Under the pieces are notes generated by a model, which was not told where the DNA came from, searched no databases, and worked only from the letters and a program-made list of their open reading frames with translations. Position numbers and translations under genes: made by a program. This document shows, in pieces, positions 9,284 through 38,193 of a stretch of 64,000 nt of DNA (the first letter of the stretch is position 1; each line of letters opens with the position of its first letter). The stretch is from positions 32,001 to 96,000 of the forward strand of contig BTVJ01000010.1 in NCBI GenBank assembly GCA_045863395.1. Reading direction: 5' to 3'. The stretch comes from Myxococcales bacterium (GTDB lineage: Bacteria; Myxococcota_A; UBA9042; JABWCM01; BTVJ01).

Positions 9284-12200
9284 ATGATCCGTGGAGCGCT
9301 GCCCCTCGCGCTCGTGCTGCTCGTGGGCCTGTGGAGCGGCGCCGCCTCGGCGCAGGTGTGCGCGCGGGTCAAGATCGAGATCGTCCAGGAGCTCACGCTG
9401 GAGCGTCAGGCCTTCGACGCGAAGCTGAAGGTGACGAACGGCGCGACGGACGTCCCGCTGACCCACCTGGGGGTCGAGGTGTCGTTTCGGGACGCGAGCG
9501 GCGGCGAGGTCGTGGCGTCGAGCGACCCGAGCTCCCTCGACGCCTCCTTCTTCGTGGCGCTCGACTCCCTGGACGGGGTGGACGCCGTCGACGGCACCGG
9601 GACCATCGCGGGCGGGGGCGTCGGGGAGGTCCACTGGCTGATCATCCCCGCGCCCGGCGCCGCCGGACCGGGTGGGACCCTGTACTTCGTCGGAGCGCGG
9701 CTCACGTACCGGCTCGGCACCGAGGAGCACACCACCGACGTGGCGCCGGACACCATCACGGTGCGGCCCATGCCCGAGCTGCACCTGGACTACTTCCTGC
9801 CGGACCAGGTCCACGGCGACAACCCGTACACGGACCCGGAGGAGCCGCCCGAGCCCTTCACCCTCGGGCTCCGGGCGTCCAACCAGGGCTTCGGGGTGGC
9901 AGAGAAGCTGGCCATCGAGTCGGCCCAGCCGAAGATCGTGGAGAACGAGCAGGGCCTGCTCATCGCCTTCGAGATCATCGGGAGCGAGGTGGACGGGGCT
10001 CCGGCCACCACGAGCCTGAAGGTGGACCTCGGGGACGTGCAGCCGGGCGAGGCGTCCGTGGCGCGCTGGTTCATGACCTCCACGCTCCAGGGGAAGTTCG
10101 TCTCCTTCGAGGCCAGCTTCACCCACGCCGACGCCCTCGGCGGCAAGCTGACCTCGCTCCTGGAGGAGGTGCGGACCCACCTGCTGGTCCACGACCTGCG
10201 GGTGGACCTGCCCGGCCGCGACGCACACGTCGACTTCCTTGCCTACGACGCCGTGGGCAACCTGACCCTGTATGAGTCGGATCTCGTCGACAGTGCGGTG
10301 TGGGACGCTTCGGACGAAGCAGAGCTCCTTGCTGCCGGACCTGACGCCTGGAACCTTGCCGTCCCGCCCACCGGCGGGTTCTCCTGGGCCCGGGTCGACG
10401 ACCCCAACGCGGGGACCCGGGTCATCGCGTCGGTGGTGCGAGCGGATGGCCGTGTGCTGGCGCCCGACGCCGCCTGGCTCTCGCGCGTATGGGTGAAGGA
10501 CTCCCAGTCGTACCTCTTCTACGTCAACGTCTTCGACACGGGGAACCCCCTCGGGCTGCCCTACGTGGTGACCTTTGGCGGGATGGCGCTCGCCAACTAC
10601 CCGCCAGTGCTCGGCTTCCTGCCGGACCGGGCCGTGGCGGCCGGCGACGCCCTGGCCTACGGGGTCGCGGCCACGGACCCGGACGGGACCGTACCCACCG
10701 TGCAGGTGGGCCACGCGCTGCCGGCTGGCGCGACCTTCGCCGCGCTCGGGGGCGGGGAGGGGCGCCTCGACTGGACCCCCACCGCGGCGCAGGTGGGGAG
10801 CTACCCCATCCTCTTCGAGGCCACCGACGGCAAGCTCTTCGACAAGGCGGTGGCGACCATCCACGTGGTGCCCGCCGGGACGCCCAACAGCCCACCGAGC
10901 GCGGTGGAAGCTGCCATCCAGACCACGGTGGGCACGCCGAGCCCCCCCGTCACGCCGACGGTGGTGGACCTCGACCCCGACGACCAGCACTTCTTCCAGA
11001 TCACCGCGGCGCCCGCCCATGGGGCGGCGGTGGTGGTGCAGAACCAGCTCGTCTACACGCCGTCGCCAGGCTACAAGGGCCCGGACTCCTTCGGGATTCG
11101 CGCGGTGGACCTGTTCGGGGAGGCCGTGGACGGCCTGGCGCAGGTGCTGGTGACCGGCTACGACAACCTGGCGGTGGAGAGCCTGGAGTGGGGCCCCGAG
11201 GGCGTGACGGTCGGAGTGCGCCTCGACGGCACCGAGGCGCCGGTCACGCCCGTGGTGCTGGAGGTGCGCGCCGCGGGGTGCGGCATCGACGCGGTGGTGG
11301 GGTCGGTGGAGCTGCTGCCCCAGCCAGGGCTGGAGTCGGTGGTGGTCGCGGTGGAGCTGCCCACGGACCGGGCGCTGGTCCTGGTGGCGGTGCTGGACGC
11401 CACCGACGCGCTGCCGGAGCCCGACGAGCTGGACAACCGGGCGAGCATCCCGGTCGCGACGGGCGCGGCCTCCACTGCGACGCTCTCCATCGGGTCGAGC
11501 GGCTCCGAGCAACGCAAGTCGTGCGCGGGTCAGGCGCTGGCCATGAACGGTCGCGCGACCTGGAGCATCGCCGAGGCGAGCCCCTGCGGGGGAGTGCCCG
11601 CGGCCGGGCAGCCGATGGTGTGGGCGCTGCGGGATCTGGACGGCGCCCCGGTGCGCCAGGGGAGCGGGCAGACGGACGCCTTCGGCGCGTGGCACCTGGA
11701 GACGGGCCTGCCGGCAGAGTCCATGGCGCTCTATGACCTGGACGTGACGGTGGGCACCCAGGGGGGCACGTGGAGCACGCGGCTGCTGGCAGTGCCCTGC
11801 CCTGCCGCGGTGCCCCCGCCGATGGTGCCCGCGCCGCCCTATCCCGGGCCGAGCGGGGCTGCCGTGGTCGTGTTCAGCGACGGCACGGCGGTCATCCCGT
11901 GGCTGGTACACCCGGGGACGCCCATCCCCACCGCCGGGCACGGAGGCAGCGGCGCGAGGGGGGCCACCTGGGGCACGGGGGCCTCGGACCAGACGGCGCC
12001 GGGCGGCCCGATCCTCGGAGCCCGCGGCGGCGTGGTGGGTGCCTTCGACGCGGCGGCCGGCGCCCTCACGGCCTCGGCAGCCAAGGCGGGCGAGCCGGTC
12101 ACCCTGCGCGGCACGGTCACGGCCAACGACTCCTACTGGGGGCTGCCCGTGGGCTGGACGGCGGAGGGTCCGGCGGGGACGCTGCCCATCGCCCCCACCA

Positions 12201-15200
12201 CCTGGTTCTACGCCAACGGGACGTTGCACGTGGCTGCCACCTGGACGCCACCGGCCGGGGGGGCGTGGACCATCACGCTGCGCGTCGGGCCGGCCCTCGG
12301 GGACACCGACCCGACCAACGACACGGCCAGCCTCGTCGTGGACGTGGCACCCCAGGTGCCCTCTCTCGACGGCCTCGCGCTCTGGCTCGACGGCACGTCG
12401 GGGGTGAGCACCGACGCGGAGGGGCGGGTCGCGGGCTGGGCAGACCGCTCGGGGCGCGCCATGGACGCTGCGCAGCCCGACGCGGCGGCGCGACCGGACG
12501 CATTGGCGGGTGGCGTGCGCTTCCACGGCGCGAGCTCGCTGGTGCTGCCCGACGGCTTCGCCGCGCTCGGCGACGGGCTGACCGTGATCGCGGTCGTCGC
12601 CCCCGACCAGGCGAGCCCCATGGGGGTCCTCGATCTGGGGCCGGGGCCGATGGCGCCCAGGATCGGGCTGGGGCTCGACGCGGACGCCCGGGTGCGCTGG
12701 CAGGCCGGCGCTCGGGTGGTGGCGGGCGGCGTCGAGGCCGAGCTGGCGGCGCCCCAGGTGGTCACCGTGGTCCACGGGGGGACCCTGGCGCGGGCACTCG
12801 TCGGGGGCGTCGAGGTCCTGGCCGAGGCGGCGCGCGTGCCAAAGGGCGGCGAGCACGCGGGGAACCGCGTCGGGGCGTCCGGGGACCCCGCCCTCGCCTC
12901 CTTCCGTGGGGAGCTGCGCGCCCTGCTCGTCTACGAGCGCCCCCTCCCCGACGGCGAGCGCGCGGCGCTCGAAGCCTGGCTGGCGGACCGTCACGGAGCG
13001 TGGCACCCCGGCGCGGCCTGGGTGGAGGCGCTGCCGGAGCCTGCGCAGGCGTTGGCGGCGACCCACCACTGGAGCCAGGCCGAGGCGGAGGCGTGGGTCG
13101 CCTGGGACGCGGACAACCCCGGCGAGGCGATCCCTGGAGACGGGCTCGCGCTGTGGCTTCGGGCAGACTCGGCGGAGCGGACCGGAGGCGAGGTCATCGG
13201 CTGGCCCGACCGCTCCGCGTCGCCATCGCCCACCCCCGCCACGCCGGTCAGCGCCTCGGCGCGGCCGACCTGGGTGCCCGGCGCGCTCGGCGGTCAGCCC
13301 GCGGTGCGCTTCGACGGGGTGGACGACGCGCTCCTCCTGGCGCCGGGTCTCGCGGACCTGCGCCGGAGCGGCGTGACGGTGGCGGCGGTCGTGCGGTCGA
13401 CCGCACCCCGGCGGAACGCCCCGGTGCTGGCGCTGCGCACGGCGACGGGGGCGGGCCCTGTAGACCTGCGGCGCCGCGGCCACGGCCCCGACGCGGTGCT
13501 CTCCACGGGCGGCGCCCTGGCCGGCGACGTGGGCTTCGAGTCCACCGCCCCGCGCCTCCTCATGGCGGTGATCGGAGCCGACGCCACCCTCACGGGCCCC
13601 CTCGGGGCGGTGAGCGGCTCCCTGCCTCGTCCTGCGGGCGTCCCACGAGACGCCTCTCGCATCGGGCGCGACGCCTGGGGCGAGGCCTTCGCCGGCGACC
13701 TGGCCGAGCTGCTGGTGTGGGACCGCTCCCTGTCGACGGACGAGCAGGACGCCGTCGCCTTGGCCCTGGCCGACCGCTATGGCCTGTGGCACCCCCAGGC
13801 CGCGTGGGTGGCAGCCCTGCCCGCGGGGCTAGCGACGCAGGCCGAGGCGCACCGCTGGACCCAGGAGGAGGCCGCGGCCCAGGCGACCTTCGCCAGCGCG
13901 TGGCCGGGCGTCCCCGGCGCCGGGCTCTCCGTCTGGCTGCGCGCGGATCTGGGGCTCACCGCCACGGGGGGCGCCGTCTCCGCGTGGGACGACCAGTCGC
14001 CGGCGGGTGGAGACGCGACCCAGGCTGCGGCAGAGTCGCGCCCGGAGCTCCTGGAGCGGGGCGTGCGCTTCGACGGGGTCGACGACTCCCTGGCGCTGCC
14101 CGCGGGCTTCGGCCGCTTCGAGGGCGCCACGGTCATCGGCGTACTCCGTCCGGGTAGCTCGCCGCCGGGGGCGCACGTGTTCGAGGCGCGCACCACGGGG
14201 GGTGACTCCGTTGCCTTGTCGGCGACCCCGACGCTGCGCTGGCGCGTCGGCGGCCTGGAGGTGAGCGGCGCCGCCATCCCCGGAGCCGTCCAGGTGGTCT
14301 CCGTGACCCATGGCGCGGACGGCGCCGTCCAGGTGCGCCGCGGAGGCGCCCCCGCGGGCTCCGGGACCCTGCCCCTGCCGGCCACCACCCTGCGGGACGT
14401 GGCCTCCATCGGAGGCACGGGCGCCACCTACGCCGGGGACCTCCACGAGCTGCTGGTCTGGCGGCGGGCGCTGCCACCAGCGGAGGTCGTCGCGGTGGAG
14501 GCCGCCGTCGCGGACGCCTGGGGCGCCTGGCATCCGCAGGCAGCCTGGGTCGGCACCCTGGCCGACGTCGGCGCCACTCTAGAGGACACGGCGCTGGTCG
14601 CCGCCCACGGCTGGTCCAAGGCCCACGCGCTCTCGTGGCTCGCCTGGAAGGAGGTGTGGTCCGCGGACGGGCCGCCCGGCGTGGGGCTCGGCCTCTGGCT
14701 GCGGGCGGACACCGGCGTCGTACAGGCAGGCGGGGCGCTGACCGCATGGACCAACCTGGCGCCCGTGGAGCCCGGACCTCCGGCCCTGCCGACCACCCCG
14801 GCCGCCGCCCCGACGGTGCAGGGTGGCGTCCACTTCGACGGCGTGGACGACGGCCTGGCGCTGCCGCCAGGGCTGGCGCTCCTCGACGGCGGCTTCACCG
14901 TCGTGCTGGTCGCGCGCCCGCAGGGGATCCGGCGGTGGGAGCGGCTCGTGGACCTCCAAGGACCATCTGGAGGCGACCAAGTGTGCCTGCTCCGTAAGGC
15001 CGACTCGGCGGCGCTCCAGGTGCGGGTCGGCGCGGCGACCCTGAGCGGCGCGCAGGCCCTGGGGCCGGAGGCGCGCATCCTGTCCGTGGTCGTCGGCCCC
15101 GGCGGCGCGACCATCCGGAGCCAGGGCGTGGTCCGCGGCTCCGGCGCCCTCCCTCTGCCCACGCGGGCGCTGCGGGACCGGAGCCGCCTCGGCCAAGGCG

Positions 15201-15421
15201 CCGACGGGACCGCGGCCTATGGCGGCGACCTCGTGGAGGTCGCGGTGTGGGAGCGCCCCCTGAGCGGGGCCGAGCTCGCAGCGATGGAGATCGCCCTGGC
15301 CGACGCCCACGGGCTCTACCACCCCGACGCGGCCTGGATCGCCGCCCTGCCGCCAGAGCACGCCGCCATCGTCCACGCCAACCGGTGGAACCAGGACCAG
15401 GCGGAGGCGGCGCTGCCATGA
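9284..15421 (+). CDS. Large secreted protein (2045 aa): uncharacterised N-terminal beta domain, Ig/cadherin-like and CARDB-like domains, four LamG/ConA-like repeats
   Basis: Signal peptide MIRGALPLALVLLVGLWSGAASA/Q then VCARVKIEIVQELTLERQAFDA. Ig-like NYPPVL..ATDPDG..LPAGATF..WTP, YTPSPGYKGPDSF, and EPDELDN. Four L.LWL.(A)D..W.D.S..VRFDGVDD..GDL.E..VW.R.L repeats start at ~12365, 13140, 13920 and 14680. Confidence 0.85.
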   Translation: MIRGALPLALVLLVGLWSGAASAQVCARVKIEIVQELTLERQAFDAKLKVTNGATDVPLTHLGVEVSFRDASGGEVVASSDPSSLDASFFVALDSLDGVDAVDGTGTIAGGGVGEVHWLIIPAPGAAGPGGTLYFVGARLTYRLGTEEHTTDVAPDTITVRPMPELHLDYFLPDQVHGDNPYTDPEEPPEPFTLGLRASNQGFGVAEKLAIESAQPKIVENEQGLLIAFEIIGSEVDGAPATTSLKVDLGDVQPGEASVARWFMTSTLQGKFVSFEASFTHADALGGKLTSLLEEVRTHLLVHDLRVDLPGRDAHVDFLAYDAVGNLTLYESDLVDSAVWDASDEAELLAAGPDAWNLAVPPTGGFSWARVDDPNAGTRVIASVVRADGRVLAPDAAWLSRVWVKDSQSYLFYVNVFDTGNPLGLPYVVTFGGMALANYPPVLGFLPDRAVAAGDALAYGVAATDPDGTVPTVQVGHALPAGATFAALGGGEGRLDWTPTAAQVGSYPILFEATDGKLFDKAVATIHVVPAGTPNSPPSAVEAAIQTTVGTPSPPVTPTVVDLDPDDQHFFQITAAPAHGAAVVVQNQLVYTPSPGYKGPDSFGIRAVDLFGEAVDGLAQVLVTGYDNLAVESLEWGPEGVTVGVRLDGTEAPVTPVVLEVRAAGCGIDAVVGSVELLPQPGLESVVVAVELPTDRALVLVAVLDATDALPEPDELDNRASIPVATGAASTATLSIGSSGSEQRKSCAGQALAMNGRATWSIAEASPCGGVPAAGQPMVWALRDLDGAPVRQGSGQTDAFGAWHLETGLPAESMALYDLDVTVGTQGGTWSTRLLAVPCPAAVPPPMVPAPPYPGPSGAAVVVFSDGTAVIPWLVHPGTPIPTAGHGGSGARGATWGTGASDQTAPGGPILGARGGVVGAFDAAAGALTASAAKAGEPVTLRGTVTANDSYWGLPVGWTAEGPAGTLPIAPTTWFYANGTLHVAATWTPPAGGAWTITLRVGPALGDTDPTNDTASLVVDVAPQVPSLDGLALWLDGTSGVSTDAEGRVAGWADRSGRAMDAAQPDAAARPDALAGGVRFHGASSLVLPDGFAALGDGLTVIAVVAPDQASPMGVLDLGPGPMAPRIGLGLDADARVRWQAGARVVAGGVEAELAAPQVVTVVHGGTLARALVGGVEVLAEAARVPKGGEHAGNRVGASGDPALASFRGELRALLVYERPLPDGERAALEAWLADRHGAWHPGAAWVEALPEPAQALAATHHWSQAEAEAWVAWDADNPGEAIPGDGLALWLRADSAERTGGEVIGWPDRSASPSPTPATPVSASARPTWVPGALGGQPAVRFDGVDDALLLAPGLADLRRSGVTVAAVVRSTAPRRNAPVLALRTATGAGPVDLRRRGHGPDAVLSTGGALAGDVGFESTAPRLLMAVIGADATLTGPLGAVSGSLPRPAGVPRDASRIGRDAWGEAFAGDLAELLVWDRSLSTDEQDAVALALADRYGLWHPQAAWVAALPAGLATQAEAHRWTQEEAAAQATFASAWPGVPGAGLSVWLRADLGLTATGGAVSAWDDQSPAGGDATQAAAESRPELLERGVRFDGVDDSLALPAGFGRFEGATVIGVLRPGSSPPGAHVFEARTTGGDSVALSATPTLRWRVGGLEVSGAAIPGAVQVVSVTHGADGAVQVRRGGAPAGSGTLPLPATTLRDVASIGGTGATYAGDLHELLVWRRALPPAEVVAVEAAVADAWGAWHPQAAWVGTLADVGATLEDTALVAAHGWSKAHALSWLAWKEVWSADGPPGVGLGLWLRADTGVVQAGGALTAWTNLAPVEPGPPALPTTPAAAPTVQGGVHFDGVDDGLALPPGLALLDGGFTVVLVARPQGIRRWERLVDLQGPSGGDQVCLLRKADSAALQVRVGAATLSGAQALGPEARILSVVVGPGGATIRSQGVVRGSGALPLPTRALRDRSRLGQGADGTAAYGGDLVEVAVWERPLSGAELAAMEIALADAHGLYHPDAAWIAALPPEHAAIVHANRWNQDQAEAALP

Positions 15422-28200: not shown

Positions 28201-31200
28201 ACGGTGCCTTCGCCGTGGACGCGACGGACGCGGAGGGCGTCGCGTGGGTCCGCTTCCTCGTGGATGGCGAGAGCATCGGACAGGATCCCTCGTCGAGCGG
28301 GGGGTGGAGCGTCGCGTGGAGCCCGGACGCCGCCGGCAACGGGCCCCACGCGCTCCGCGTCGAGGCGCAGGACGTCCACGGCAACGGCTCCAGCCTGGAC
28401 GCGCCCTTCGTGGTGACCCTGGGCCCGCCCCCACCGCCGACGCTGACGTCCCCCGCCGACGGGGCCGTCGTCGGCACCTCGACCCTGCTGGTGAGCGGCA
28501 CGGCCAAAGCGGGCTCGCTGGTCGCGGTGCGCGCGGGAGAGGCGGCCGCCACGATCTCCGCCAACCCGTCGGGCAGCTTCACGACGGCCATCACGCTCGC
28601 GCCCGGCCCCAACGTCCTCACGGCGACCGCGACCGGTGTGGGAGGCGAGAGCGCCCCGTCCGCGCCCATCGGCGTCACGCTGGACACGGTCACCCCGCTG
28701 GCTCCCAAGGCCCTGTCGGCGGTGGGGGGGGAGGCCGGCGCCATCACCCTGTCCTGGGCCGACGCGGGCGACTCCTCGCCGAGCGGCACCCAGGGCTACC
28801 GCGTCTGGCGCGCGGCGGCCCCGTTCACGGCGGTGGGGCAGGCCACGCTCGTCACGGCGACGCCCGTGACCGCCCTCAAGGTGACCGATCTGCCCCCGGC
28901 GGACGGCGCCTGGTGGTACGGCGTCACCAAGCTGAGCAAGGCCGGCCTGGAGAGCGGCCTGTCCAGCCTCGCGACGGCCACGTCCGACTCCACGCCCCCC
29001 ACCGTTCAGCTCGTGTGGACTCCGCAGGGAGCCTCCGGCGGCGGCAAGGTGGGCGTCGGCCCCCTCGCGCTGACCGCCACCTTCAGCGAGCCCCTGCTTG
29101 CCACGCCCTTCCTCGCGCTGACGCCCGCCGGCGGCACCCCGATGACCATCCAGCTCGCCAAGGCCGGAGACACCTTCACGGGAACTGCCCAGGTCACGGA
29201 GTCCACCCCGAGCGGCACCGCGTGGGCCGTGGTGTCCGCCCGCGACCTGGTGGGCAACCGGGGGACCCAGATCACCGGGGGGGGCACCGTCACCCTGGAC
29301 ACACGGGCGCCGGAGGTCGCGTCTCTCGTCACGGACCCGCCCGCCCCCATCGCCAACGACCCGGACGCGCCGGTGACCGTCTCCGTCACCGTGACGTTGG
29401 ACGAGGCGATGCCGGCTGGTGTGGCCCCCTCCCTGACGTGGCGCCTGCTGGCCACCCACCCGGAGCCCTCGACAGTCCCACTCGCGTCACTGGACCCGCT
29501 GACCTGGGTGGGGGGCCTGACGCTCCCGACGACCGCGGGCGCTCCCCCCGAGGCCCTCGCCTTCGCGTGGCTCGCCGTGGACGAGCTCGGCAACGAGGGC
29601 ACGACGATCCATGGGCCCGCGGAGATCGAGGTCTACCAGGGCGCCCTCCCCCCACTGGCCGCGCCGTTGGGCTTGAAGGCGGAGCCGCAGCCGGGCGGGC
29701 ACATCGCCCTGAGCTGGATCCCGGTCGCAGGGGCGTCCGCCACCCGCGTCTACCGCCGGCCGCCGGGTGGTGCCCACACGCTGATCGCCGAGGTGCTCGA
29801 CCCGTCCCACACGGACCTCCCGGACGCAGACGGGCCGTGGGTCTACGCCGTCGCCTCAGTGCGCACGGTAGGCAGCGCGGTGGCGGAGAGCCCGAAGAGC
29901 CCGGAGGCGACGGCGACCTCCGACAGGGTGCCCCCGGGCGCCCCGCTGGCTCTGGCGCTGTCCCTGACGGGGCAGGGGGTGGTGGCCCAGTGGTCGCCGC
30001 CGCCCTACACGGAGCCTGTCACCTACCGCCTGCTCCGCTCAGCGGACCCGATCACCACCGCAGAGGGAGCCACGGTGGTGGGCTCAGGCATCCCGGGTAC
30101 GAGCGCCGCGGACCCCGCCCCCACCACCGCGGAGCGCACCTACGCGGTGGTGGCGGCAGACGCGGTGGGCAACCTCTCCGCCCCGAGCGCCAACCAGATG
30201 ATCAACGCAGCGCTCCTGCCCGTGGCCGCCCTGACCGCCGTCCGGGGAGCAGGGGCGCCCGTGCTGACCTGGACGCATGGCGCCTCGGACCTTGCCGGCT
30301 TCCGGGTCACCGTGGACGGCGCCACCGAGCCCGGCCTGCTCGCAGCGCCGCCATTTACGGACGCCGCCTGGGAGGGAGGCTCTCGGACCTACGGCGTCTC
30401 CGCCGTCGACGACCTGGGGGACGCGAGCCCCGAGCACCTGCTGACCCTGCCGGATCTCACCGCCACCCTGGCCAGCGGGAGCGTCAGGCGCAACGTGATC
30501 TCGCGGTTGACCTGGTCCCTGACGTCCCCCACGACGGTAGCCGGCGTGACGCTCGCGTTGGACCTGGGGGCCTCGGCGGCTGCCGCGCCGCCGGTCACGG
30601 TGGGGCCGGCACCGACGCTTGTGGACCTGGTGGTGGCGGGTGCCCCCTCCCTGCCAGACGCGGTGGACGCCACACTGGGCATGTCCGTGACGCCTGCCCC
30701 CGGCGATGGCGTGCTCATCGAGAGCGCCGCCCCCTTGACGGTCACGAACGACGGCTACCTGCTGCAGGTCCAGTCCCAGGCCCTGGTCCGGGGCGCGCCT
30801 ACCCAGGTGCGCCTCGTGCTCCAGAACACGAGCGACGTCACGGCGGAGGTGGTGACCGCGACGGGGGCCGGCTCCAAGCCCTCGGACCAGGTACGCTTCC
30901 GCCTGGAGGACCCGGACGGCAACCTGCTTGCCACGGCGGCACTCCACCAGGGCCTCGGGGAGGGTGTGGTGCAGGTGCCGAACGGCCAGACGGTAGGGCG
31001 CGCGCAGCCCGGGCAGGCGTTCACCTCGGCCTGGACCACGCTCGCCGTCCCCGAGGCCGCGCCGGACACCGTGGTCCTGCGCGCGGTGGTGGACGCGGTC
31101 CACTACGACCTGGGCAAGGCAGGCCACGTCCAGGTGCCGGGCCCGTCGTCCTCCCAGACCCTCACGCTCGTGCCGCCGCCCTACGACGCCGCCGTGACGA

Positions 31201-34200
31201 GCGCGACGCCCTCCGTTTCGCAAGGAGAGGCGCCCATCCTCATCGCCGGCAACGCCTGGCAGCCCTCCGGCGCCCCGGCCGGGAAGGTCACGGTGCGCAT
31301 CACCCTCACGCTGGCGGGCTTCGTGCGGACCTTCGACGTCCAGACCGCCGCGGACGGGACCTTCACCCTGCCCTTCTTGCCGCCGGCCGCCGAGGGCGGC
31401 GTCTATGAGGTGCGCGCCGGCTACCCGGGGCTCGGCGACACGGCGCCCGAGGCGACCTTCACGGTCAACAAGGTGGTGGTGACCCCCAAGGCACCAACGC
31501 TGACCCTCGCGACGGGCTACCCCACCACCCTCGCGCTCACGGCAGCCGCCACCCCTGGCCTGGCGCTGACGGCGCTCCGCGTGGAGGTGGTCCAGGCGCC
31601 GGCCGGCATCACGCTCGAGCTGCCTCCGCCCCAGGACGCTACGGGGACCGTCTCACTGCCGATCATGGTCACCGGCGGGGCGCCAGCCCCCACCTCGTCG
31701 TACTTCTTGCTGCGAGTCCTGAGCGACGAGGGCACCTGGGGGGAGCTGAAGGTCACCTACACCCTGACGCCAGCGGGGCCGGCCCTGACCTGGTCCCCCG
31801 CGTTCGTGCAGACCGGGGTGGCTCGGGGGGACGTGGTCAGCGAGACCGTCACAATCGCCAACGAGGGGACCCTCGTCGCCGCTGGCGTGTCGGTGTCGCT
31901 CCTGTCCTCCACCAAGACCACCGCCCCCACCTGGGCCTTCGTCCAGTCGGGAAAGCAGCTCGGCGACCTCGCCGTCGGCGCCAAGGTGCCCGTCACGCTG
32001 ACCTTCGCACCCCAGCCGTCCACCCCTCTCTCGGTGGGTGGCCCCACGCAGCTCTGGCTGCGCGTCACGGCGCTGGGTCAGCTCCCGAAGGACGTCCCCG
32101 TCTACGTGACCGTGGACGACAGCGGCGTGGGCACCGCCCTGTTCAAGGTCTCCGACATCTACACGGCGACCCTGGGCCCCGACGGGCAGCTCATCGAGGG
32201 CCTCGCGGGCGCCACAGTCAAGCTGGACAAGGTGAGCGGCACCCTCCAGACCGTGAAGGCGACCACCGACGCCACGGGAGAGGCGAGCTTCCCCAACCTG
32301 CCCGCGGGCACCTGGTCCTGGCGCGTGAGCGCCCCCGGCCACGACGCGGTGACGGGCACCCTGAGCGTGAAGTCCGGCTTGACCCTCCCGGTCGCGGTCT
32401 TCCTGCCCAAGCCCCTGGTCACGGTGGAGTGGTCGGTGGAGGAGACCACCATCGAGGACAGCTACACCATCGTGCTCTCCGCCACCTTCGAGACCGACGT
32501 CCCTGCCCCGGTGGTGGTGGCGGAGCCGGCGTCCATCACGCTGCCGCCCATGGAGCAGGGGGACGTCCTCTATGGGGAGTACACGCTGACGAACTACGGG
32601 CTCATCCGCGCGGAGGCGATCACCACCAAGCTCCCGTCGGCCAAGGACTACAAGTTCGAGCTGCTCGCGTACCCGCCGCCGGACATCGAGGCCAAGCAGT
32701 CAGTCTCGGTCGCCTACCGCGTGACGCGCCTGAGCCCCAAGGACCCAGGGGGCGACTCCTCGGGCGGCGCGAGCGGCTGCGGCCTCTACAGCTACCCCCT
32801 CGGGCACTGCTACACGTTCTCGTGCGCCAACGGCTTCCAATCGGGCGGCTGCGCGAGCGTCACCTGGGTCACGGGCGGCTCCCCCGGCAACGGATCGGGC
32901 TGCGGTGGCGGGTGGTGGTGGGTCGGAGGCCCCGGTGGGCCCGGCGGACCGATCTCGGTGGTGGGTGGCGCCAAGAAGTGCGACCCCTGCGAGGACCCGG
33001 GCATGGACGCCATCGAGCGCAAGTGCTGCAAGGAGCGCAAGAAGCAGGCGACGGGCAGCTCCGTGGACCTGGTGACCGGCGCCTACGAGGACGAGGTGGT
33101 CGACCTGTCCGTCGAGACCCTGGGGCACACGGTGACGGCGTCCCGCTTCTGGTACGGCAACGCCTGGCACTTCGGGGTCTTCGACGGCGACCTGGACCTG
33201 TCACTGGCCAAGTGCCCGGTCGTCCCCGAGGGCGCTGGCACGAGCAAGGCCGCGAAGGCCGCCATCACGCTCCTGGGCATCGTGTACGAGTCCCCCTGCG
33301 TGGGGGGCGCCTCCACCGTCTTCACGTCCGGGAGCGCCACCATCTCGCCGTCCGAGGACGGGTGGCGGTGGCAGGACGCGAGCGGCCAGTGGCGCGCGTT
33401 CACGATGGCGGGCAAGCTCCTGTCCTGGGGTGACCGGGCGGGGCGCGCCGTGTCCGTGGACCGGGACGGCAGCGGCCGCGTCATCGCGTACCGCGACCAC
33501 TTCGGCGCGCTGGCGCTCACGTGGGCGTGGGGCGCCGATGGGAAGGTGGCGGCCGCCGAGACGGCAGACGGGCGCCGCGTCGAGTACACCTGGGAGGCCG
33601 GGCGGCTGACGCGGGTCAAGGACCCGGTGGGCCGAGAGACCCTCTACACCTACGACACCAAGGGCCGGCTGACGGTGAAGCAGCACCCGAGCGGCCTCGT
33701 GCTCGCCATCACCTACGATGGCGGCGGCAACGTGGCGTCGGTGCTCGACCAGGACGGCGCGGGCTGGTTCTTCCAGTACGGCCACGACGCGGGCTCCGAG
33801 CAGGACTACGCTGCCGTGCTTGGAACGGATGGCCACGTGGACGAGCGGTGGTGGAGCAAGACCGGCGCCTTGGTCAAGCGCACCATCGACGGGGAGCCCG
33901 TACCCGAGCTGGATCCGGCGAGCGTCGTGGATCTGGGCCCCTCGGGGAACATCGAGGCGACCTGGACACTGGACGGGCAGAAGAGGGACACATGGGAGTA
34001 TGGCCCGTGGGGCCTCCCAGCGACGCGCGAGGACGCCCGCGGCACCGTGACCGCCTGGACGTGGGACGTCAACGGGGACCTGACGCGCCTGGTCAAGGCC
34101 GCCGGCACCTCCGCCAAGGACATCGTGGACCACGTGCGCGACGGCGTGGGGCGCCTCACCCAGATGGTGGCCCGAGGCGACGGCGCGGTGACGCCGCGGA

Positions 34201-37004
34201 CGTGGGCGTACACCGTCAATGCGCGGGGTCAGCGGGAGGCAACCACGGACCCGCTCGGCCTGACGACCACCACCACCCATGACGCGGCGGGCCACGTCAC
34301 GGCTCTGACGCTGACGGACGGGGCGGCGTGGGAGGCAGACTACGACGGCGCGGGGCGCCTCCTGGAGGTGCGCCGGACTCCGCCTGGTGGCGCGACCACC
34401 GCAGAGACCCACGTCTACGCGCCGCGCCTCAACGGGGACGGGGACGTCGTCGGCCAGCGCGTCACGGTCACGGACGCCACGGGAACCTGGACCCTGGACG
34501 AGGACCAGCGCGGACGGGTGGTGGGCGTGACCGACGCCGCGGGCCGCACGGTCAAGCGCACCTATGACCTGCGAGGGCGCCTCGTGGCGGAGACGGACGC
34601 GGACGGCCGGGTCACCGAGTCGACGTGGGAGTCCGTGGGCTTCGGCATGGAGCGGCAGACCCTCCGGGTGGACGGGGTCGTCGTGGAGACGACGGACCGA
34701 GACCGGGCGGGGCGCGTCGTGGGGAGGTCCCGCGCGGGCATCGAGGAGACGCTGTACTACGACGGCGGCGCGACGCGCCCATCCCAGCGCCAGCTCCCGG
34801 GGGTGACCGAGGCCACCACCTGGGACGGCTTCGGGCTTCCGGTCCAGCGCTCCCTGATCACGGACGACGCCACCTGGACCACGGTGTGGGAGAACGACGG
34901 GGGCCTCGAGATGGCCCTGACCTCGCCCTTCGGCGGCCGCTGGTCGGTCACGCGCGACCCCTTGGGCCGCATCACGAGCGCGACCACTCCCCTCGACGCG
35001 ACCACCGTCGTGACCTGGGACCCGCACGGCAACCTGGCCTCGGTGGTGGACGCCAACGGACGCCCCGTGGCGACCTTGACCTACGACGCCCTGGACCGGG
35101 TGGCCACCCGCACCGTGGGCGCGCAGACCTTCACCTACACGTGGGACGCGGGCGGGCGCCTCGTCGCCATCGAGAGCACGGCGGGCAACCGCGTCGACCT
35201 GACTCTGGACGAGCGGGGGCGCATGGTCGCGCAGGCGGCGACGGCGGACGACGCTCCTGGGGTCTCCGCCACCTACGCGTGGGACGCCCAGGATCGCGTC
35301 ATCGCCGCCCAGACCGCCGAGGTGAGCGTGGCGACCGTCTGGGACGACTCCGCGCGCTCCCGCGCCGTCACGGCGGACTTCGGCGCCTTCTCCAAGACCT
35401 GGACCGAGCGGACCGACGCGCGAGGCCGCCTCGCCTCCCTCACGCTCCCGGACGGCACGGGCGTCAGCTACGGCTTCGCCCCCGACGGGACGCTCCTGAC
35501 CGTCGCCGTGGACGGCGAGGGCGCGCTGGTCGCGGTCCAGGAGACCCCGCTCCGCCGAGCCCTGACGACCCCGGACGGCACCGTGATCACCCACGAGCAC
35601 GACGCGCTGGGGCGGCTCCTGCACACGACCGTGACTCATGCAGGCACGACGCTCCTCGAGCGCCGCTACGTGTGGGAGGCGTACCGCCTGGTCGCCATCG
35701 AGAGCGAGCACGGCGACTACGCCTACACCTATGACGCGGCGGATCGCCTGACGGAAGCGACGACCCCAGGCCTGCCCCCCTTCGAGGCGACCTACGACCC
35801 GGTGGGCAACCGCCTGACCGACGGCGCCGGCGCCTGGACCTGGGACACGGCCGGTCTCCTCGCGTCCATCGGCGACGCAACGTTCGGCTGGGACGCCCGG
35901 GGCAACCTCCTCTCCCGCACGGACATCGGCCACACCTACCAGTGGAGCGCCGCCAACCAGCTCGTGGGCGTGACCGGCTCCGTGGAGGCGAGCTACGGGT
36001 ACGGCCCGAGCGGGGAGCGGGTGCGCAAGACCGTGGACGGCCAGACGACCTGGTCCCTCTGGTCGGACCGGGGTCTCCTGGCGGAGTACGACGCCGACGG
36101 GGTGGAGCTGCGGGCCTGGGCTCCGACGCCGGGGGCGCCCTTCAACACGGCCCCGGTGCTCCAGAGGACGGGCGGGCTCATCGCATGGACGGTGCTGGAC
36201 CACCGGGGCGCCCCCATCGCCCTGGTGCGCGGAGGCACCGTCGTGTGGGCCGTGACCCTTGAGCCCTTCGGCCAGGGCCACGCCCTCGTCTCCACCGTCG
36301 ACTGCCCGCTGCGCCCGTCGGGCCAGGTCGCGGACCCGGAGACGGGCCTGCACTACAACAGCGCCCGCATGTTCGACCCGCGCCTCGGCCGCTACCTGAG
36401 CCTGGACCCCGAGCTGGAGCAGCAGGGCGACCCCAACCTCTACCAGTTCGCCGACGCGAGCCCCCTCATCCGGGAGGACGTCCTCGGCACCAAGGGCAAG
36501 TGGAGCGGCGGATGCAGCACGAGCGGCAAGTGCAACGGCGGCGCCGGCTTCAGCGCTGGCGCCTACGAGGGCGTCGGCGGTGAGGTCGGCGCAGGGGCCG
36601 AGCTCACGACGGAGGACTGCTGCAAGGACGGCCAGCCCGTGCGCAACGGCAAGACCTGCCTCAACTTCAAGGGCTCCGCGGAGGGAGGCTTCGGGCTCGG
36701 CGCCAAGGGAAGCCTCGGCGGCGTGGGCACGGGCGCGTCCGGCAAGCTGGCCACGGCGGGCCTCTCCGCCAACTGCTCGGTCTGCAACAAGTGCGGCGAG
36801 TCGACCACGGAGCGGGAGTGCTGCGGCGGCGCGTCCATCAACGGCCCGAGCATCGGCGGGAGCATCGGCTTCGTGAAGGCCGGCCTCTCCTCGGGCAGCT
36901 TCGGCACCAAGCTCTGCTACAACTTCGACAGCGGCAAGTGGACCTTCACCCCGCCGGGATTCTCGGGTCCGTCCGGCACGCTGGGGGCAGGCGGCGATCT
37001 CTGA
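16266..37004 (+). CDS. Giant secreted multidomain adhesin-like RHS/YD-repeat protein (6912 aa)
   Basis: GGAGG RBS and signal peptide MSAALRTLIAVAMLVPGAAAA/Q. Fibrinogen-like (SGVYWL..FCDLDTDGGGWTLC), discoidin-like (TNVALGRKATA..AVDG..YW), DUF2341-like, many FN3/Ig repeats, carboxypeptidase-regulatory-like domain. YD repeats run from ~33400; RHS core PLRPSGQVADPETGLHYNSARMFDPRLGRYLSLDP..NLYQF..PLIREDVLG. Confidence 0.92.
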   Translation: MSAALRTLIAVAMLVPGAAAAQNLLVNGSCDDALVGAEIPGWTEVTGTSWTRRSSSPGARDGSYYFYAGANAAAELAQSVDVSSMAADIDGGAHAFRFSGFIRSFDQAPSDTARIVVEYRSGAGTVLDAFDTGPTAYFVAWTPISDTRTAPVGTRTIRVRLESIRFNGTNNDGYFDGLRLVALGAPPAVAGTATRIEDLRAEATEGGVRLRWTAPTAGLRRGLSPDLPALDCVDVAETGNTASGVYWLATEGGPSRAFCDLDTDGGGWTLCYTATTTVRLASETTYDPALPYGTDGYRADCRGVPFRDVLYVNHDGGDHAWFRRDAAGDVTMGELGYNTNGAELGTFTGHGATDAGVPYQLMVCDTTNWYPGLMVSGAGSCWKSCGNWCSDSTSLYYRMRGLSYVGAAFNQPGHRDLQPKRLSVGVRRRVPNPPPGASTYEVRSSAVAITDAAPWEPTPSRGEHDGTVDDGALTLAPPVAGVVDDRARVLAVESGLTVPLGVAVTDGAWIYAKPQAGSGPSIFWKIGSGMGGTVAGQVESSVGPDTTASMSAAYLDGFIYNPISGNPYALERLDVATGVLETVAVPDGLLRRDTGRVEAGGEILIGSDGQHLLCLAHSIEGGSLNGWRLRTYGVGPLGEPDLLDESLIFTTSYAARSVLADGSVVIPMPWGNSSGTARILAVLDPATLAQVRTSSIIQCSSCWDFDAPAGGGYDPLHGLFWVGDGVRPRLAAFPATRVTSAGTFTSEAHDFGAPVTLGSITWDAEIPAGASATVSARTSQDLATWSAFAPVSASGGTPAVPAGRYAQVRVTMSRGSNAPRVRGLHVSASGETWSAATPVTGAPEPGPPGTPQEMVVPVAPGEAWFAIRAVTTAPGPASVPAHRPAGTAITLDSPPDGATVAGLVPVQVTAAATSVELRVDGALVATLEAPSAPAAQAASPRWRLSRTVRVDDAGPGLSATTTVSVPLDVADLIPRGFVRPDLSDLRLLGSEELPRLRHRDGTLRFRLPRPIPPGGTDTFTLVMGGDPSGPAPDSPGSVALFHDDFEGGDARWTNLQGPWAVAEVGGRTAMQRAVTSETLGGGVRAWLTQAEPGPLPQSFDLEALVRSPSGYSNAYWGFFLYGSAVTVNDATYIGSNHLIHHTWTTNGGYTEIQSVSDFVRLDHWHRLSAHVRGVTFDTRLDGTLTVFGRPGHGPAGTVGLWSEATYGAGTAPAWYDDLTIWDRGVLPPRVVLGPETPAPTTPSTWTWAWDTTSLAPGTHTIEARAVDAFGSASATAVVTVEAPVVSTPTLTAPADGALVEGTTVHVTGTAPAGSVVTVTVDGEPAATTTAAGGTPWVVEAEAPSNTVTGGMIVGGAIHVGSWPGPSTTNVALGRKATANKTYSGSYPASQAVDGRPESGAGTYWLAPNGAKDAHVTVDLGAPHVVDRIRVINTRNGSFNDRSTKDYRLGISMDGVTFTVVASGTLADDDWTTWVTSTLAPPLVARHVRFYADTYFGSGAGLGELEVYGTEQGAWARVETPWHALPGTLVSFTADASGAAHEVSVEGETWLPISALPGLSLPAGQARLRTTLVRSSLTSDPWVDRLQVVASGAGGGPGAFATDVPVIGGIHQIAASATLGAVTSSPSATVTIDVDPAPPGAVNDLLATPGAAQGSVVLTWTAPGDDGAAGTAAAYQIWRHSAPLSANLLQVATVVPAPAPAAGGTPESLTVTGLATGTTYHWILRAVDDRGQEAPLSNGSSTIPGDTTAPSLTITAPVGGAHLRSSQTLTATATDPSGVATVTWKVDGTTVAVATTPFSATIDTAGWADGQHTIVGEARDTFGNLTTKQVTVTFDNTAPSLALDPVASPRATAVTVTYTTSDALTPAGQLVVRDQDGRAPPLVYGDEGPRTVTVTSTDLAGNVASALVAFLIDQTGPAPIVDLEATPGGGGVELAWTAPSDALTSVASYEVRVAAAGGTAFGTGADGPLSVTGTVTVDSVRTPVVGDVPAGSTTVPVVNAAGFQAGDEVILWDAQGPLSPGRWTSRRLSGVAGGALLLDAPLADALPGATDQVVAQRVPQYTNVTVNAGGILTASPWDGQTGGLVAFRATGTVTILAGGKIDASGLGFRGSPASGTWQCRRNQSGGGGEGLLGHLAADQPNAHVNGGGGALRVTCTDAAGGGGGGNAAPGTPGEDWTCSLGGKGGAAVDDHGFTRLLLGGGGGEGGADNDGGAPGIGGRGGGAVVLSTASILIDGELTSRGKAGGNACQSCAGCSGSGCGMGGGGGGAGGSVLVRAGAFDLNVGLVDVAGGSGGLHVGSCGGNGGAGGAGRVRIEADTVAGPVPGAVTGALSAFDWAAATPVEGAPTPGAPGAAESMTATELPAGSLLFAVRSRDAVGNLSPLSNVPGVDSAPPTVTIDDPLDGETVTRPVAVQVTATDDVGVLSVRFAVDGQELSVDTAPPWRHDLDIRALVPGPHEISVVATDTSGMEAQAAVTVVIAPAPPAAPVILAPEEGALVRTATPAIGGSAEAWTTVHVYADGDLVASVPSAKAATLSWEAEADAVARHGLTIDGGQVAIAPAGGTATNLALLPGTVVTGGTDTSTAVDGKTTYWWASWRTSAACTEVPTRLGRVALAAPALIDHIRLGLFDDGRQFYGYRVEVSQDGHEWVTWADTAGSGLDYTGDQELSGPPRMIRYVDIWVTGSTTGCDAIVSEVGIFAATSGLGGVALFPLVADPTATLATGFEASESPADGSITWEVLATGDLLADTFEGNAVDPERWVQAGTTVAAGVASVTGTGTWGQRYLIGRKRAFRTGDVVLSARLFPTTGSRSMVGIKDQDTTTTYTALIYGLHFDAGTLNVYEDGTLRGSVGTYTQAQWIDVRIEVGDPAGATTWIRPAGGDWSQVYASAYSAEADLRPALIVRTGTVQLDAMTLRARAWWPMERLSDADLAASRLQVRAHLTRPNVEATSPTVDVASLLLSDGALGAGPGAFRAVVPLADGAHTVTAVCEDAVGSGPPSPPVTFTVDSGPPDAITDLTGVALPGGVVQLGWTAPASEPVTSYLVYRSSTPIEDVSQHQPIATTAATGFLDASNQSATFHYVVVAVDLAGNRSAPSNAVVVVSDKAGPTATVATNPPSPLGLGDVEVVFTLSEPVQAGAVFRFVPPGGAPVTLSAVADSPLVHRATLAITEAMASGQAEFTWSGVDLTGNAGTAVPTGRYVTLDTVRPTATISLTPPPPLGPGSVAVKVLSSEPLSAVPGLAFAPEGKGPTPIPLSGAGGLYQGTLTVTPALGDGVGVFSFQGTDAVGNVGTTLTKGGTAIIDTTPPAPPTDLAAVKTPTGAISLTWSQPGDASTWRVYRDRDPLTSTAGLTPAVTATTTSALDLPPEDGLWHYAVVAVDAAGNASGPSDGASVVASPPPPEDPTGLTVVAAGLTTVTVGWIPSIDSQGTLTGYRVYRDGALVQTLSPSATATTLGGLSPASGAAVRVTAFDAANRESLGATVQAWTLVPNPADLAAEGQDGRVELEWTPSLAPAVLHQAIYMGEAPFGTVAGLLPVATVAPGAASASVLGLTNGQPLWFAVVAVNQSGLFEPAVTPVGATPADHEAPNPPTALKVVESLATSVVLSFTPSTSADLAGYTLKRNGTQVATLPAGASGYTLGGLPTASSNALALAAYDGSGNQSAAATVTAVTLLPNPSGVTVTPHDQSLTVTWAHAQPVLLVKTYRVYAEPAPFTSVTGLTPRVTKWGTSATITGLFNGQPTWVAVTTVNDSDGETQAVTPVSAIPQDDAPPANPGSVTVTASDGTSVTLAWTAPPNPTGDLAGTRLYLDGALVATVGPTLTTHTLTGLAPGSSYAVRLTSFDAAGNESAGATLTVYTTLPNPPVTGVTPGHGSLTLAWTPATPASNVGGQALYVGTAPFVTVAGKAPALVVGPTATSGKVVGLTNGQVAHVAVVTVSKSGGFDPAVVSVPGTPAKDTVGPSLASVTFAGAPLADPVTGDGAFAVDATDAEGVAWVRFLVDGESIGQDPSSSGGWSVAWSPDAAGNGPHALRVEAQDVHGNGSSLDAPFVVTLGPPPPPTLTSPADGAVVGTSTLLVSGTAKAGSLVAVRAGEAAATISANPSGSFTTAITLAPGPNVLTATATGVGGESAPSAPIGVTLDTVTPLAPKALSAVGGEAGAITLSWADAGDSSPSGTQGYRVWRAAAPFTAVGQATLVTATPVTALKVTDLPPADGAWWYGVTKLSKAGLESGLSSLATATSDSTPPTVQLVWTPQGASGGGKVGVGPLALTATFSEPLLATPFLALTPAGGTPMTIQLAKAGDTFTGTAQVTESTPSGTAWAVVSARDLVGNRGTQITGGGTVTLDTRAPEVASLVTDPPAPIANDPDAPVTVSVTVTLDEAMPAGVAPSLTWRLLATHPEPSTVPLASLDPLTWVGGLTLPTTAGAPPEALAFAWLAVDELGNEGTTIHGPAEIEVYQGALPPLAAPLGLKAEPQPGGHIALSWIPVAGASATRVYRRPPGGAHTLIAEVLDPSHTDLPDADGPWVYAVASVRTVGSAVAESPKSPEATATSDRVPPGAPLALALSLTGQGVVAQWSPPPYTEPVTYRLLRSADPITTAEGATVVGSGIPGTSAADPAPTTAERTYAVVAADAVGNLSAPSANQMINAALLPVAALTAVRGAGAPVLTWTHGASDLAGFRVTVDGATEPGLLAAPPFTDAAWEGGSRTYGVSAVDDLGDASPEHLLTLPDLTATLASGSVRRNVISRLTWSLTSPTTVAGVTLALDLGASAAAAPPVTVGPAPTLVDLVVAGAPSLPDAVDATLGMSVTPAPGDGVLIESAAPLTVTNDGYLLQVQSQALVRGAPTQVRLVLQNTSDVTAEVVTATGAGSKPSDQVRFRLEDPDGNLLATAALHQGLGEGVVQVPNGQTVGRAQPGQAFTSAWTTLAVPEAAPDTVVLRAVVDAVHYDLGKAGHVQVPGPSSSQTLTLVPPPYDAAVTSATPSVSQGEAPILIAGNAWQPSGAPAGKVTVRITLTLAGFVRTFDVQTAADGTFTLPFLPPAAEGGVYEVRAGYPGLGDTAPEATFTVNKVVVTPKAPTLTLATGYPTTLALTAAATPGLALTALRVEVVQAPAGITLELPPPQDATGTVSLPIMVTGGAPAPTSSYFLLRVLSDEGTWGELKVTYTLTPAGPALTWSPAFVQTGVARGDVVSETVTIANEGTLVAAGVSVSLLSSTKTTAPTWAFVQSGKQLGDLAVGAKVPVTLTFAPQPSTPLSVGGPTQLWLRVTALGQLPKDVPVYVTVDDSGVGTALFKVSDIYTATLGPDGQLIEGLAGATVKLDKVSGTLQTVKATTDATGEASFPNLPAGTWSWRVSAPGHDAVTGTLSVKSGLTLPVAVFLPKPLVTVEWSVEETTIEDSYTIVLSATFETDVPAPVVVAEPASITLPPMEQGDVLYGEYTLTNYGLIRAEAITTKLPSAKDYKFELLAYPPPDIEAKQSVSVAYRVTRLSPKDPGGDSSGGASGCGLYSYPLGHCYTFSCANGFQSGGCASVTWVTGGSPGNGSGCGGGWWWVGGPGGPGGPISVVGGAKKCDPCEDPGMDAIERKCCKERKKQATGSSVDLVTGAYEDEVVDLSVETLGHTVTASRFWYGNAWHFGVFDGDLDLSLAKCPVVPEGAGTSKAAKAAITLLGIVYESPCVGGASTVFTSGSATISPSEDGWRWQDASGQWRAFTMAGKLLSWGDRAGRAVSVDRDGSGRVIAYRDHFGALALTWAWGADGKVAAAETADGRRVEYTWEAGRLTRVKDPVGRETLYTYDTKGRLTVKQHPSGLVLAITYDGGGNVASVLDQDGAGWFFQYGHDAGSEQDYAAVLGTDGHVDERWWSKTGALVKRTIDGEPVPELDPASVVDLGPSGNIEATWTLDGQKRDTWEYGPWGLPATREDARGTVTAWTWDVNGDLTRLVKAAGTSAKDIVDHVRDGVGRLTQMVARGDGAVTPRTWAYTVNARGQREATTDPLGLTTTTTHDAAGHVTALTLTDGAAWEADYDGAGRLLEVRRTPPGGATTAETHVYAPRLNGDGDVVGQRVTVTDATGTWTLDEDQRGRVVGVTDAAGRTVKRTYDLRGRLVAETDADGRVTESTWESVGFGMERQTLRVDGVVVETTDRDRAGRVVGRSRAGIEETLYYDGGATRPSQRQLPGVTEATTWDGFGLPVQRSLITDDATWTTVWENDGGLEMALTSPFGGRWSVTRDPLGRITSATTPLDATTVVTWDPHGNLASVVDANGRPVATLTYDALDRVATRTVGAQTFTYTWDAGGRLVAIESTAGNRVDLTLDERGRMVAQAATADDAPGVSATYAWDAQDRVIAAQTAEVSVATVWDDSARSRAVTADFGAFSKTWTERTDARGRLASLTLPDGTGVSYGFAPDGTLLTVAVDGEGALVAVQETPLRRALTTPDGTVITHEHDALGRLLHTTVTHAGTTLLERRYVWEAYRLVAIESEHGDYAYTYDAADRLTEATTPGLPPFEATYDPVGNRLTDGAGAWTWDTAGLLASIGDATFGWDARGNLLSRTDIGHTYQWSAANQLVGVTGSVEASYGYGPSGERVRKTVDGQTTWSLWSDRGLLAEYDADGVELRAWAPTPGAPFNTAPVLQRTGGLIAWTVLDHRGAPIALVRGGTVVWAVTLEPFGQGHALVSTVDCPLRPSGQVADPETGLHYNSARMFDPRLGRYLSLDPELEQQGDPNLYQFADASPLIREDVLGTKGKWSGGCSTSGKCNGGAGFSAGAYEGVGGEVGAGAELTTEDCCKDGQPVRNGKTCLNFKGSAEGGFGLGAKGSLGGVGTGASGKLATAGLSANCSVCNKCGESTTERECCGGASINGPSIGGSIGFVKAGLSSGSFGTKLCYNFDSGKWTFTPPGFSGPSGTLGAGGDL

Positions 37005-37580: not shown

Positions 37581-37588
37581 GAGGCGCC

Positions 37589-37879: not shown

Positions 37880-37887
37880 GAGCAACC

Positions 37888-38178: not shown

Positions 38179-38193
38179 GCCGAGGAGGAACCC

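Follow-up and report, generated by a model that had tools for sequence, protein, structure and literature searches.

Autoproteolytic release of the C-terminal tip is established for Rhs proteins. Among the closest described systems, the Xanthomonas perforans RHS bacteriocin Bcn-A is reported to need XpsD, a type II secretion system (T2SS) secretin, for its activity (PMC7259588), the excerpted account of Zhang et al. 2012 describes only inactive transglutaminases fused to RHS (PMC3482391), and the excerpted account of Sec-exported teneurin-like proteins says that delivery machinery is not obvious (PMC13018210). The question addressed here is by what means Sec-exported RHS toxins get to their target cells and attach to them, and the system described below is a candidate machine for this. 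It was found in a stretch of 64,000 nucleotides (nt), hereafter the window (positions 32,001 to 96,000 of the forward strand of contig BTVJ01000010.1, assembly GCA_045863395.1), from the 8.77 Mb genome of a Myxococcales bacterium. Three genes encode a 'base' subunit whose N-terminal domain is here called X (gene 1), a transglutaminase-like enzyme (gene 2) and a giant protein in which an adhesive region, a stalk, a neck and a cysteine-rich tail are followed by an RHS shell and a C-terminal tip (gene 3). A likely reading is that they specify a Sec-exported, multi-subunit RHS polymorphic-toxin particle with a clamp-joined adhesin stalk, which leaves the cell through a T2SS and carries a releasable tip.

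A first-pass annotation had described three ATGA-joined genes with Sec-type signals as a dedicated extracellular apparatus bearing an RHS cargo. The open reading frames (ORFs) and their overlaps (15418-21 and 16266-69) were confirmed, G+C content at third codon positions is of coding type in each (0.93-0.94), and hydrophobic signal-like starts were called on genes 1, 2 and 3 by the hydrophobicity rule used throughout this work (11-residue Kyte-Doolittle maximum 2.8, 2.1 and 2.3); the same kind of scan found no later transmembrane-like 19-mer in any of the three proteins. The genes co-occur across phyla, and the unit has the look of a dedicated export apparatus bearing RHS cargo. Beyond that annotation, X and the neck emerge as the conserved core, the family comprises polymorphic toxins accompanied by immunity genes, and two further regular parts are a T2SS cluster and a rhodanese-like protein. 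The system is real, widespread and apparently uncharacterised.

The predicted neck-X clamp and its spread

Co-folding of fragments had been proposed as a check. For X and the neck of the window the score was 0.89, whereas the best of three controls came to 0.01; there were 268-278 contacts, runs agreed in 94% of contacts or more, and partner pLDDT was at least 87. Among solved pairs 116 of 157 attain the mark used, and among mismatched pairs 2 of 215, though these numbers are only roughly valid with the alignments used. In the model, a hairpin of the neck (aa 5384-5414) pairs with the N-terminal strand of X and with X 250-257. Independently of this, when a natural fusion of the two was modelled with AlphaFold2, single immunoglobulin (Ig) domains of the PDB could be aligned over neck and X jointly (3mnm_A, 102 residues, Z 9.7, root-mean-square deviation (rmsd) 3.1; 2r39_A, 106 residues, Z 9.4, rmsd 2.8), and matched less of X alone (3mnm_A, 89 residues, Z 7.2, rmsd 3.1; 2r39_A, 91 residues, Z 6.9). 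Since one Ig domain spans both parts, the first Ig of X would lack a strand that the neck supplies, and the neck hairpin is predicted to complete this fold. No solved structure of a similar complex was found: fold searches with X alone and with the fusion model returned generic Ig matches, none clear, in which the helical cargo of the fusion was barely covered, and the neck profile gave only weak Cna-B/SpaA-like matches in the PDB.

The cysteine of the neck's CxNG motif is invariant (28/28 aligned), the number of cysteines is odd in 20 of 20 stand-alone neck tails as well as in the window's tail (one frameshifted gene of 21 was left out), and X carries its N-terminal cysteine in all proteins in which the motif was located (219/219 and 112/112, from 251 and 120). 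As Cys26 of gene 1 and Cys5520 of gene 3 both lie in the modelled interface, these patterns suggest an inter-chain disulfide, and the unpaired neck Cys5520 probably bonds to Cys26 of X.

X, the first ~410 mature residues of gene 1, matches 2827 clusters at 50% identity with E up to 0.001 and 1848 at 1e-30, and the C-terminal domains behind it differ widely between homologues. A contig scan gave at least 321 confirmed matches, the best 80 loci being taken for neighbour counts; the neck lies within 10 kb of X in 29 of these 80 and RHS in 36. For the 51 loci with no neck in view, 50 genomes were searched further (L077, with an N gap, was left out), and the neck was found in 23; in the remaining 27, X lies 41-7642 nt from a contig end, so that these genomes say little. 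Of 301 genomes of the host phylum, 4 have X and 3 have the neck, which always adjoins X. The host genome itself bears a second locus on another contig, C22 (20352-53884), where a gene 1 paralogue (45% identical) directly overlaps an 8987-aa giant, with no enzyme between them. This giant has stalk, neck and RHS in common with gene 3 and differs in its N-terminal repeat region, the two together holding 18 of the 19 RHS-repeat matches of the genome; ~4900 aa of other repeats (propeller-like units and Cys-rich myxobacterial repeats) stand ahead of the common stalk.

Across the loci compared, gene order varies and repeat regions are not conserved, as would be expected of a chance cluster of unrelated secreted repeat proteins; that explanation, refuted by the linkage across phyla and by natural fusions and also opposed by the co-fold and the cysteine patterns, can be given practically no credence. 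Conserved synteny of the trio, put forward in the first-pass annotation as a check, is seen as cross-phylum co-occurrence and, in one Desulfospira locus, as the very order of the window (X, enzyme, fused stalk-RHS giant), followed there by neck-RHS-tip cassettes with small downstream genes. A Desulfospira genome, G351 (L011, L055, L115-L117), contains six X matches and arrays of such cassettes, in which recombination appears to swap material from the neck onward. In Variovorax the stalk gene comes first, followed by glutaredoxin, RHS, a small gene, X, a T2SS cluster that encloses another RHS, rhodanese and enzyme. In Cystobacter fuscus (L023), the genes for stalk and X contain several frameshifts, which leave the locus in fragments.

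A relative from the phylum encodes neck and X as a single protein, and the neck stands ahead of X in a single chain in 106 of 121 proteins retrieved with the Saccoglossus region as query. Such fusions include Saccoglossus LOC100371179, proteins of molluscs and a shrimp, a sponge adhesion G-protein-coupled receptor (GPCR), and proteins of Phycisphaerae, Verrucomicrobia and Aquisphaera, Planctomycetes being among the hosts; where RHS would be, they have an insert of ~280 residues that is Cys-rich and helical and frequently contains RRKR-like sites. Among the animal fusions (P0292, P0123, P0253-P0372) are an adhesion GPCR of Dysidea avara and a Saccoglossus protein carrying three copies; numerous unnamed proteins in ENA, ~2200 aa long, are similar to the sponge form. 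RHS-less versions of neck and X occur in both bacteria and animals. In one RHS-less variant (L004/L104 (G111), L102, L103 (G305)), a stalk, neck and helical segment lead to a Hint module at the extreme C-terminus, followed by the genes for X and rhodanese; a Hint module that ends its protein, without a toxin, suggests autoprocessing or ligation.

Accessory proteins and the proposed route of secretion

Gene 2 has the YHNWAE and N-terminal motifs of its enzyme family, in which the triad C182, H220 and D233 is invariant (17/17 aligned) and most members carry an N-terminal hydrophobic anchor. The enzyme lies within 10 kb of X in 32 of the 80 loci. Of a second set of 40 genomes (L086 is in both sets), 22 contain it nearly complete and 30 contain the rhodanese-like protein, and in all 14 genomes of this set with enzyme and X on one contig the two are less than 24 kb apart; an enzyme profile at 1e-30 found nothing in 300 other genomes of the phylum. 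Triad, anchor and linkage are what a LapA/LapG-like switch would lead one to expect, in which the enzyme, as a regulated protease retaining or shedding the giants, would be the core function of the trio. Yet the family is PF01841, which is not that of LapG, no type I secretion system (T1SS), RTX or LapD-like genes were present in the loci read, and the enzyme is missing at C22 and from isolates of Xanthomonadales in which stalk, RHS, X and T2SS are retained; such a switch is thus very unlikely.

The enzyme family was likewise not found in Saezia and Comamonas genomes or in several Xanthomonadales isolates keeping the remaining parts. Fused as well as split loci have the enzyme, and some lineages have lost it, so that it is neither the linker of the giants nor a general cutter between neck and RHS. 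The idea of the first-pass annotation that it joins the two giants gives way, in view of C22 and the enzyme-less Xanthomonadales, to a clamp predicted to form by strand complementation and a disulfide. The best reading of these distributions makes the transglutaminase an active but dispensable accessory. Its role can be guessed at: covalent cross-linking or anchoring of the particle is the foremost candidate, tentatively held, proteolytic maturation or release comes somewhat behind, and some other role is the least probable. A correlation between X and enzyme similarities (Spearman 0.64, 30 loci) was not used, since shared descent explains it.

A rhodanese-like gene lies within 10 kb of X in 29 of the 80 loci and also stands beside RHS-less, enzyme-less neck-Hint/X loci. 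Its product has an invariant C-terminal cysteine and appears to lack a cysteine at the usual active-site position; some loci also contain glutaredoxin genes, and it may be speculated that these proteins serve the disulfide step. The homologue in this genome is an orphan on contig C4 (7111-8061), unlinked to the window locus, and likely acts in trans. T2SS genes flank 14-19 of the 80 loci (within 10 kb of X) and sit within the locus in many Proteobacteria, whereas they are elsewhere in this genome. The notion that T2SS-type and transglutaminase-type loci exclude one another was rejected when wider searches placed the enzyme just behind the T2SS cluster.

Tips, immunity genes and the nature of the proposed particle

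Among flank loci with the end of the neck visible, 5 have neck and RHS in one gene and 21 have them apart, with more of both elsewhere, and 23 of 25 stand-alone RHS genes have a signal-like segment of their own (2 of 103 control windows). The 38 RHS ends compared are mostly unrelated to one another. Pfam assigns PT-HINT to both Hint-like tips tested, finds WHH/colicin DNase among the tips and gives a PLA2 match under the cut-off, while six of nine downstream genes tested match families, among them SMI1/KNR4, Imm50, ankyrin, DUF4265 and DUF6714. By these sequence matches, the family is shown to be a polymorphic toxin system with immunity genes.

For the toxin particle favoured here, the following course may be envisaged. 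Each subunit would cross the inner membrane by means of its own signal peptide, of which the signal sequence is seen. In the periplasm, as two folding programs and the cysteine patterns suggest, the neck hairpin would fill the first Ig fold of X and Cys5520 would bond to Cys26. The folded particle may then exit through the T2SS, as the gene neighbourhood suggests, and the variable lectin and Ig domains of both giants, including the LamG-like repeats of gene 1 as putative glycan- or surface-binding modules, would select a surface or prey. The RHS shell beside the clamp could free the C-terminal tip by autoproteolysis, the motif being retained here (Asp6714 and Asp6738, the presumed autoprotease residues of Rhs/TcC proteins), and the transglutaminase would act on the particle as an accessory. 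Because no cytoplasmic immunity gene lies behind it, the Gly- and Cys-rich tip of the window is, at a guess, probably membrane-active or directed at non-kin cells.

Several observations weigh against this reading. The co-fold output has both cysteines in the interface and does not name them as a pair, and the co-folding model may have learned the neck-X pair from natural fusion sequences; homologues share descent, so that linkage and motif counts are not independent. The canonical T2SS of this genome, on contig C26, is unlinked to the window locus, and type VI secretion system (T6SS) genes are present on contigs other than that of the locus. In a quick tree, which rested on a poor alignment and was uninformative, gene 2 fell outside the family, among unrelated transglutaminases from the same genome. 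The tip is 34% identical to that of the C22 paralogue and resembles no other tip tested, has no family in Pfam or NCBIfam, and reaches at best 0.88 in the ESM Atlas, again with no family; a two-sequence homology search with the tip found nothing, a weak test covering 8000 candidates of 301-2000 aa only. No immunity-type gene lies directly behind the tip in the window, at C22 or at three Desulfospira loci (L011/L039/L055), so that this lineage may be non-toxic. A separate alignment of the tip with three Desulfospira tips was dropped, the similarity not being significant.

The missing immunity genes also suit a particle with the same clamp and stalk that is here a non-toxic, teneurin-like adhesin or matrix fibre, with a structural RHS shell and a tip that serves in binding or as a signalling peptide. 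No catalytic motif is seen in the tip, no orphan tip cassettes occur in the window, RHS-less versions of neck and X are known and adhesion domains abound in both giants. Against such a fibre speak an intact autoprotease motif, paralogous tips that diverge more (34% identity) than the rest (38-45%), and the Desulfospira arrays of neck-RHS-tip cassettes and small downstream genes. In addition, in the excerpted report, the tip of BiTLP inhibited Escherichia coli only with a signal peptide (PMC13018210), which suggests that unannotated tips can be membrane toxins. The fibre is accordingly held unlikely, and the toxin particle is preferred.

The first-pass annotation had found no small immunity ORF after the RHS stop; none lies directly behind it, as stated there, yet four tandem lipoprotein-like ORFs (75-96 aa and 2-5 Cys each) begin 349 nt on. 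They have no Pfam or NCBIfam family and no paralogue in the genome, the paralogue search being valid for the last three, and in RNA runs X1 and X2 from sludge they lie on contigs other than those of gene 3. They are probably a separate unit, an immunity role being less favoured. An ABC ATPase gene and two permease genes, the first matching DUF3526, follow just downstream of them.

Window layout and known systems

The features of the locus are collected in the table below. Pfam lists LamG, Big_9 and He_PIG for gene 1, Transglut_core (PF01841) for gene 2 and Big_7, fn3, F5/8, CarboxypepD_reg and RHS_repeat for gene 3, with PF05593, TIGR03696 and NF041261 covering the RHS core; neither Pfam nor NCBIfam lists PAAR, VgrG, SpvB/TcdB, two-partner secretion (TPS) or RTX families for the three genes, in agreement with the earlier statement that the trio holds no PAAR/VgrG, TPS or Tc gene.

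Features of the locus, by position in the window
Feature	Position	Strand	Remarks
Gene 1, 'base' subunit, 2045 aa	9284..15421	+	Signal-like start; X and Ig domains; LamG-like repeats (four)
X domain (gene 1 aa 23-434)	9350..10585	+	Three beta-sandwiches; without Pfam family
Gene 1 Cys26	9359-9361	+	Invariant across the X family
Four LamG/concanavalin-like repeats of gene 1	12356..15418	+	Lineage-specific variable part
Gene 2, transglutaminase-like enzyme, 283 aa	15418..16269	+	Triad Cys182/His220/Asp233 intact
Gene 3, 6912 aa	16266..37004	+	Signal-like start, adhesin region, FN3/Ig stalk, neck, Cys tail, RHS shell, tip
Gene 3 variable adhesion region	16329..25190	+	F5/8, fibrinogen-like, AgmC-N-like Gly-rich, Ig/FN3; mostly exchanged for other repeats in the C22 paralogue
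Gene 3 conserved FN3/Ig stalk	25191..32141	+	
Gene 3 neck (aa 5293-5500)	32142..32765	+	
Neck donor hairpin (aa 5384-5414)	32415-32507	+	Goes into X domain in the model
Gene 3 Cys/Gly tail	32766..33047	+	9 Cys
Gene 3 Cys5520	32823-32825	+	Invariant CxNG cysteine; proposed partner of gene 1 Cys26
RHS/YD shell	33048..36488	+	End RYLSLD...SPLIREDVLG; presumed autoprotease Asp6714 + Asp6738 present
Gene 3 C-terminal tip, 171 aa	36489..37001	+	44 Gly, 11 Cys; without assigned family
GC hairpin, 14 pairs	37055..37089		50 nt past gene 3 stop; scored as terminator only on minus strand
Four small lipoprotein-like ORFs	37353..38439	+	Start 349 nt past RHS stop, beyond hairpin

Two sludge RNA runs from one study contain 93% of the sequence words of 9200-19000. 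Over 21000-40999, run X1 gives a 22,121-nt contig that ends at 31192 and would begin near 9072 if colinear, and a second contig spanning 31184 to 37149. These contigs fit a single operon, although contigs do not reveal where transcripts end and the runs may contain DNA. Nor can RNA contigs rank expression, and the thin coverage of the 3' end of gene 3 in runs X2-X4 was given no weight.

Elsewhere in the window, an operon on the minus strand (99-7446) resembles, by eye, a soluble NiFe hydrogenase/sulfhydrogenase with maturation genes. A YbhB/PEBP-like gene at 8295-8885 seems to have its expected C-terminal end in another frame near 8826, and this appears to be a frameshift or assembly error. 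A Cys-rich repeat lipoprotein-like gene at 55653-57413 has C-terminal repeats of Kunitz-like look, again by eye. On contig C90 (17080-18324) of the genome, a VgrG-like OB-fold gene and a PAAR-like gene lie apart from the VipB gene on C11.

More broadly, it is proposed tentatively, with doubt slightly outweighing confidence, that the system is an undescribed Gram-negative secreted toxin machine, in which a split-Ig, disulfide-sealed clamp joins stalk and base and bears swappable cargo (RHS shell, Hint module or helical bundle), with its own transglutaminase and rhodanese-like maturation proteins and often its own T2SS, and that the same clamp, fused and RRKR-flanked, survives in sponge, mollusc and hemichordate surface proteins, including an adhesion GPCR, as a second link from bacterial toxins to animal receptors after the teneurins. 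The clamp interface is named, as a prediction, at residue level, a structural role would be assigned to a domain family that has thousands of unannotated members and extends into animals, and the clamp is a candidate natural covalent protein coupler of ~600 aa. The system occurs in cultured strains of Variovorax, Pseudoxanthomonas, Lysobacter and Cystobacter.

The earlier statement that no characterised system has this composition holds for the literature searched, which was mostly open-access with supplements aside (those of PMC3482391 could list such loci) and contained no description of the neck/X system. In Omnitrophota, giant genes are reported beside T2SS loci, with no neck/X module in the excerpted description (10.1101/2023.11.21.568195).

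The T6SS Rhs effectors RhsP, Tse5 and Tre23 and the Tc toxin C subunits share the RHS shell and the C-terminal autoprotease motif and give the best PDB sequence matches, whereas the present system is without a PAAR/VgrG-binding or TcB-binding module, has signal peptides and shows no TcA gene among the window neighbours or the recurrent locus neighbours. Chaperone-usher pilins likewise have an Ig fold missing one strand that is completed by a strand of another subunit, the arrangement predicted here; the neck-X pair differs in being heteromeric, probably disulfide-locked and without a chaperone or usher gene (no usher gene was found among the recurrent neighbours of the loci) or sequence link, and fold comparison with pilins gave generic Ig-level matches only (e.g. 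CfaB, TM 0.2). A giant adhesin adjoining a transglutaminase-fold enzyme is also found in LapA/LapG, from which the present loci differ by having no T1SS, RTX or LapD and by an enzyme that is dispensable and of another family. The umbrella toxin particles of Streptomyces also combine several secreted subunits in a particle with a stalk, lectins that vary and a polymorphic toxin, which in many cases follows Hint; they have ALF repeats and a coiled coil, whereas no ALF family is listed by Pfam for the window genes, no homology was found, and the hosts here are Gram-negative, with an Ig/FN3 stalk and an RHS shell.

Bacterial teneurin-like proteins, as far as the excerpted description goes (PMC13018210; PDB 9ifo), resemble the system in a Sec-exported YD shell, an adhesive N-terminus, a polymorphic tip of ~15 kDa and a connection with surface proteins of animals, but the likeness is confined to the YD region (E 1e-15) and the animal link is the clamp here and the shell there. 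In teneurin-like proteins an FN-plug and an NHL propeller come before the YD shell. A sequence test of gene 3 found no NHL propeller before the shell, which is directly preceded by neck and Cys tail, and no lipoprotein, S-layer or cell-wall anchor, there being no lipobox at its start and no transmembrane segment. On sequence grounds and at family level, the system works like, and belongs to, the Sec/T2SS class of RHS polymorphic toxins, with a signal-like start on the RHS protein, an RHS core with cleavage motif and hypervariable tips that include known toxin domains. With the members of this class as excerpted (PMC3482391; WapA; Bcn-A, PMC7259588) the family shares signal peptide, RHS shell, hypervariable tip and immunity genes. 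Unlike those toxins, which are there single chains with no neighbourhood signature listed, its loci add a linked T2SS cluster, a stand-alone transglutaminase with an intact triad and a rhodanese-like protein, and its neck/X clamp is predicted to join two to three separately encoded subunits.

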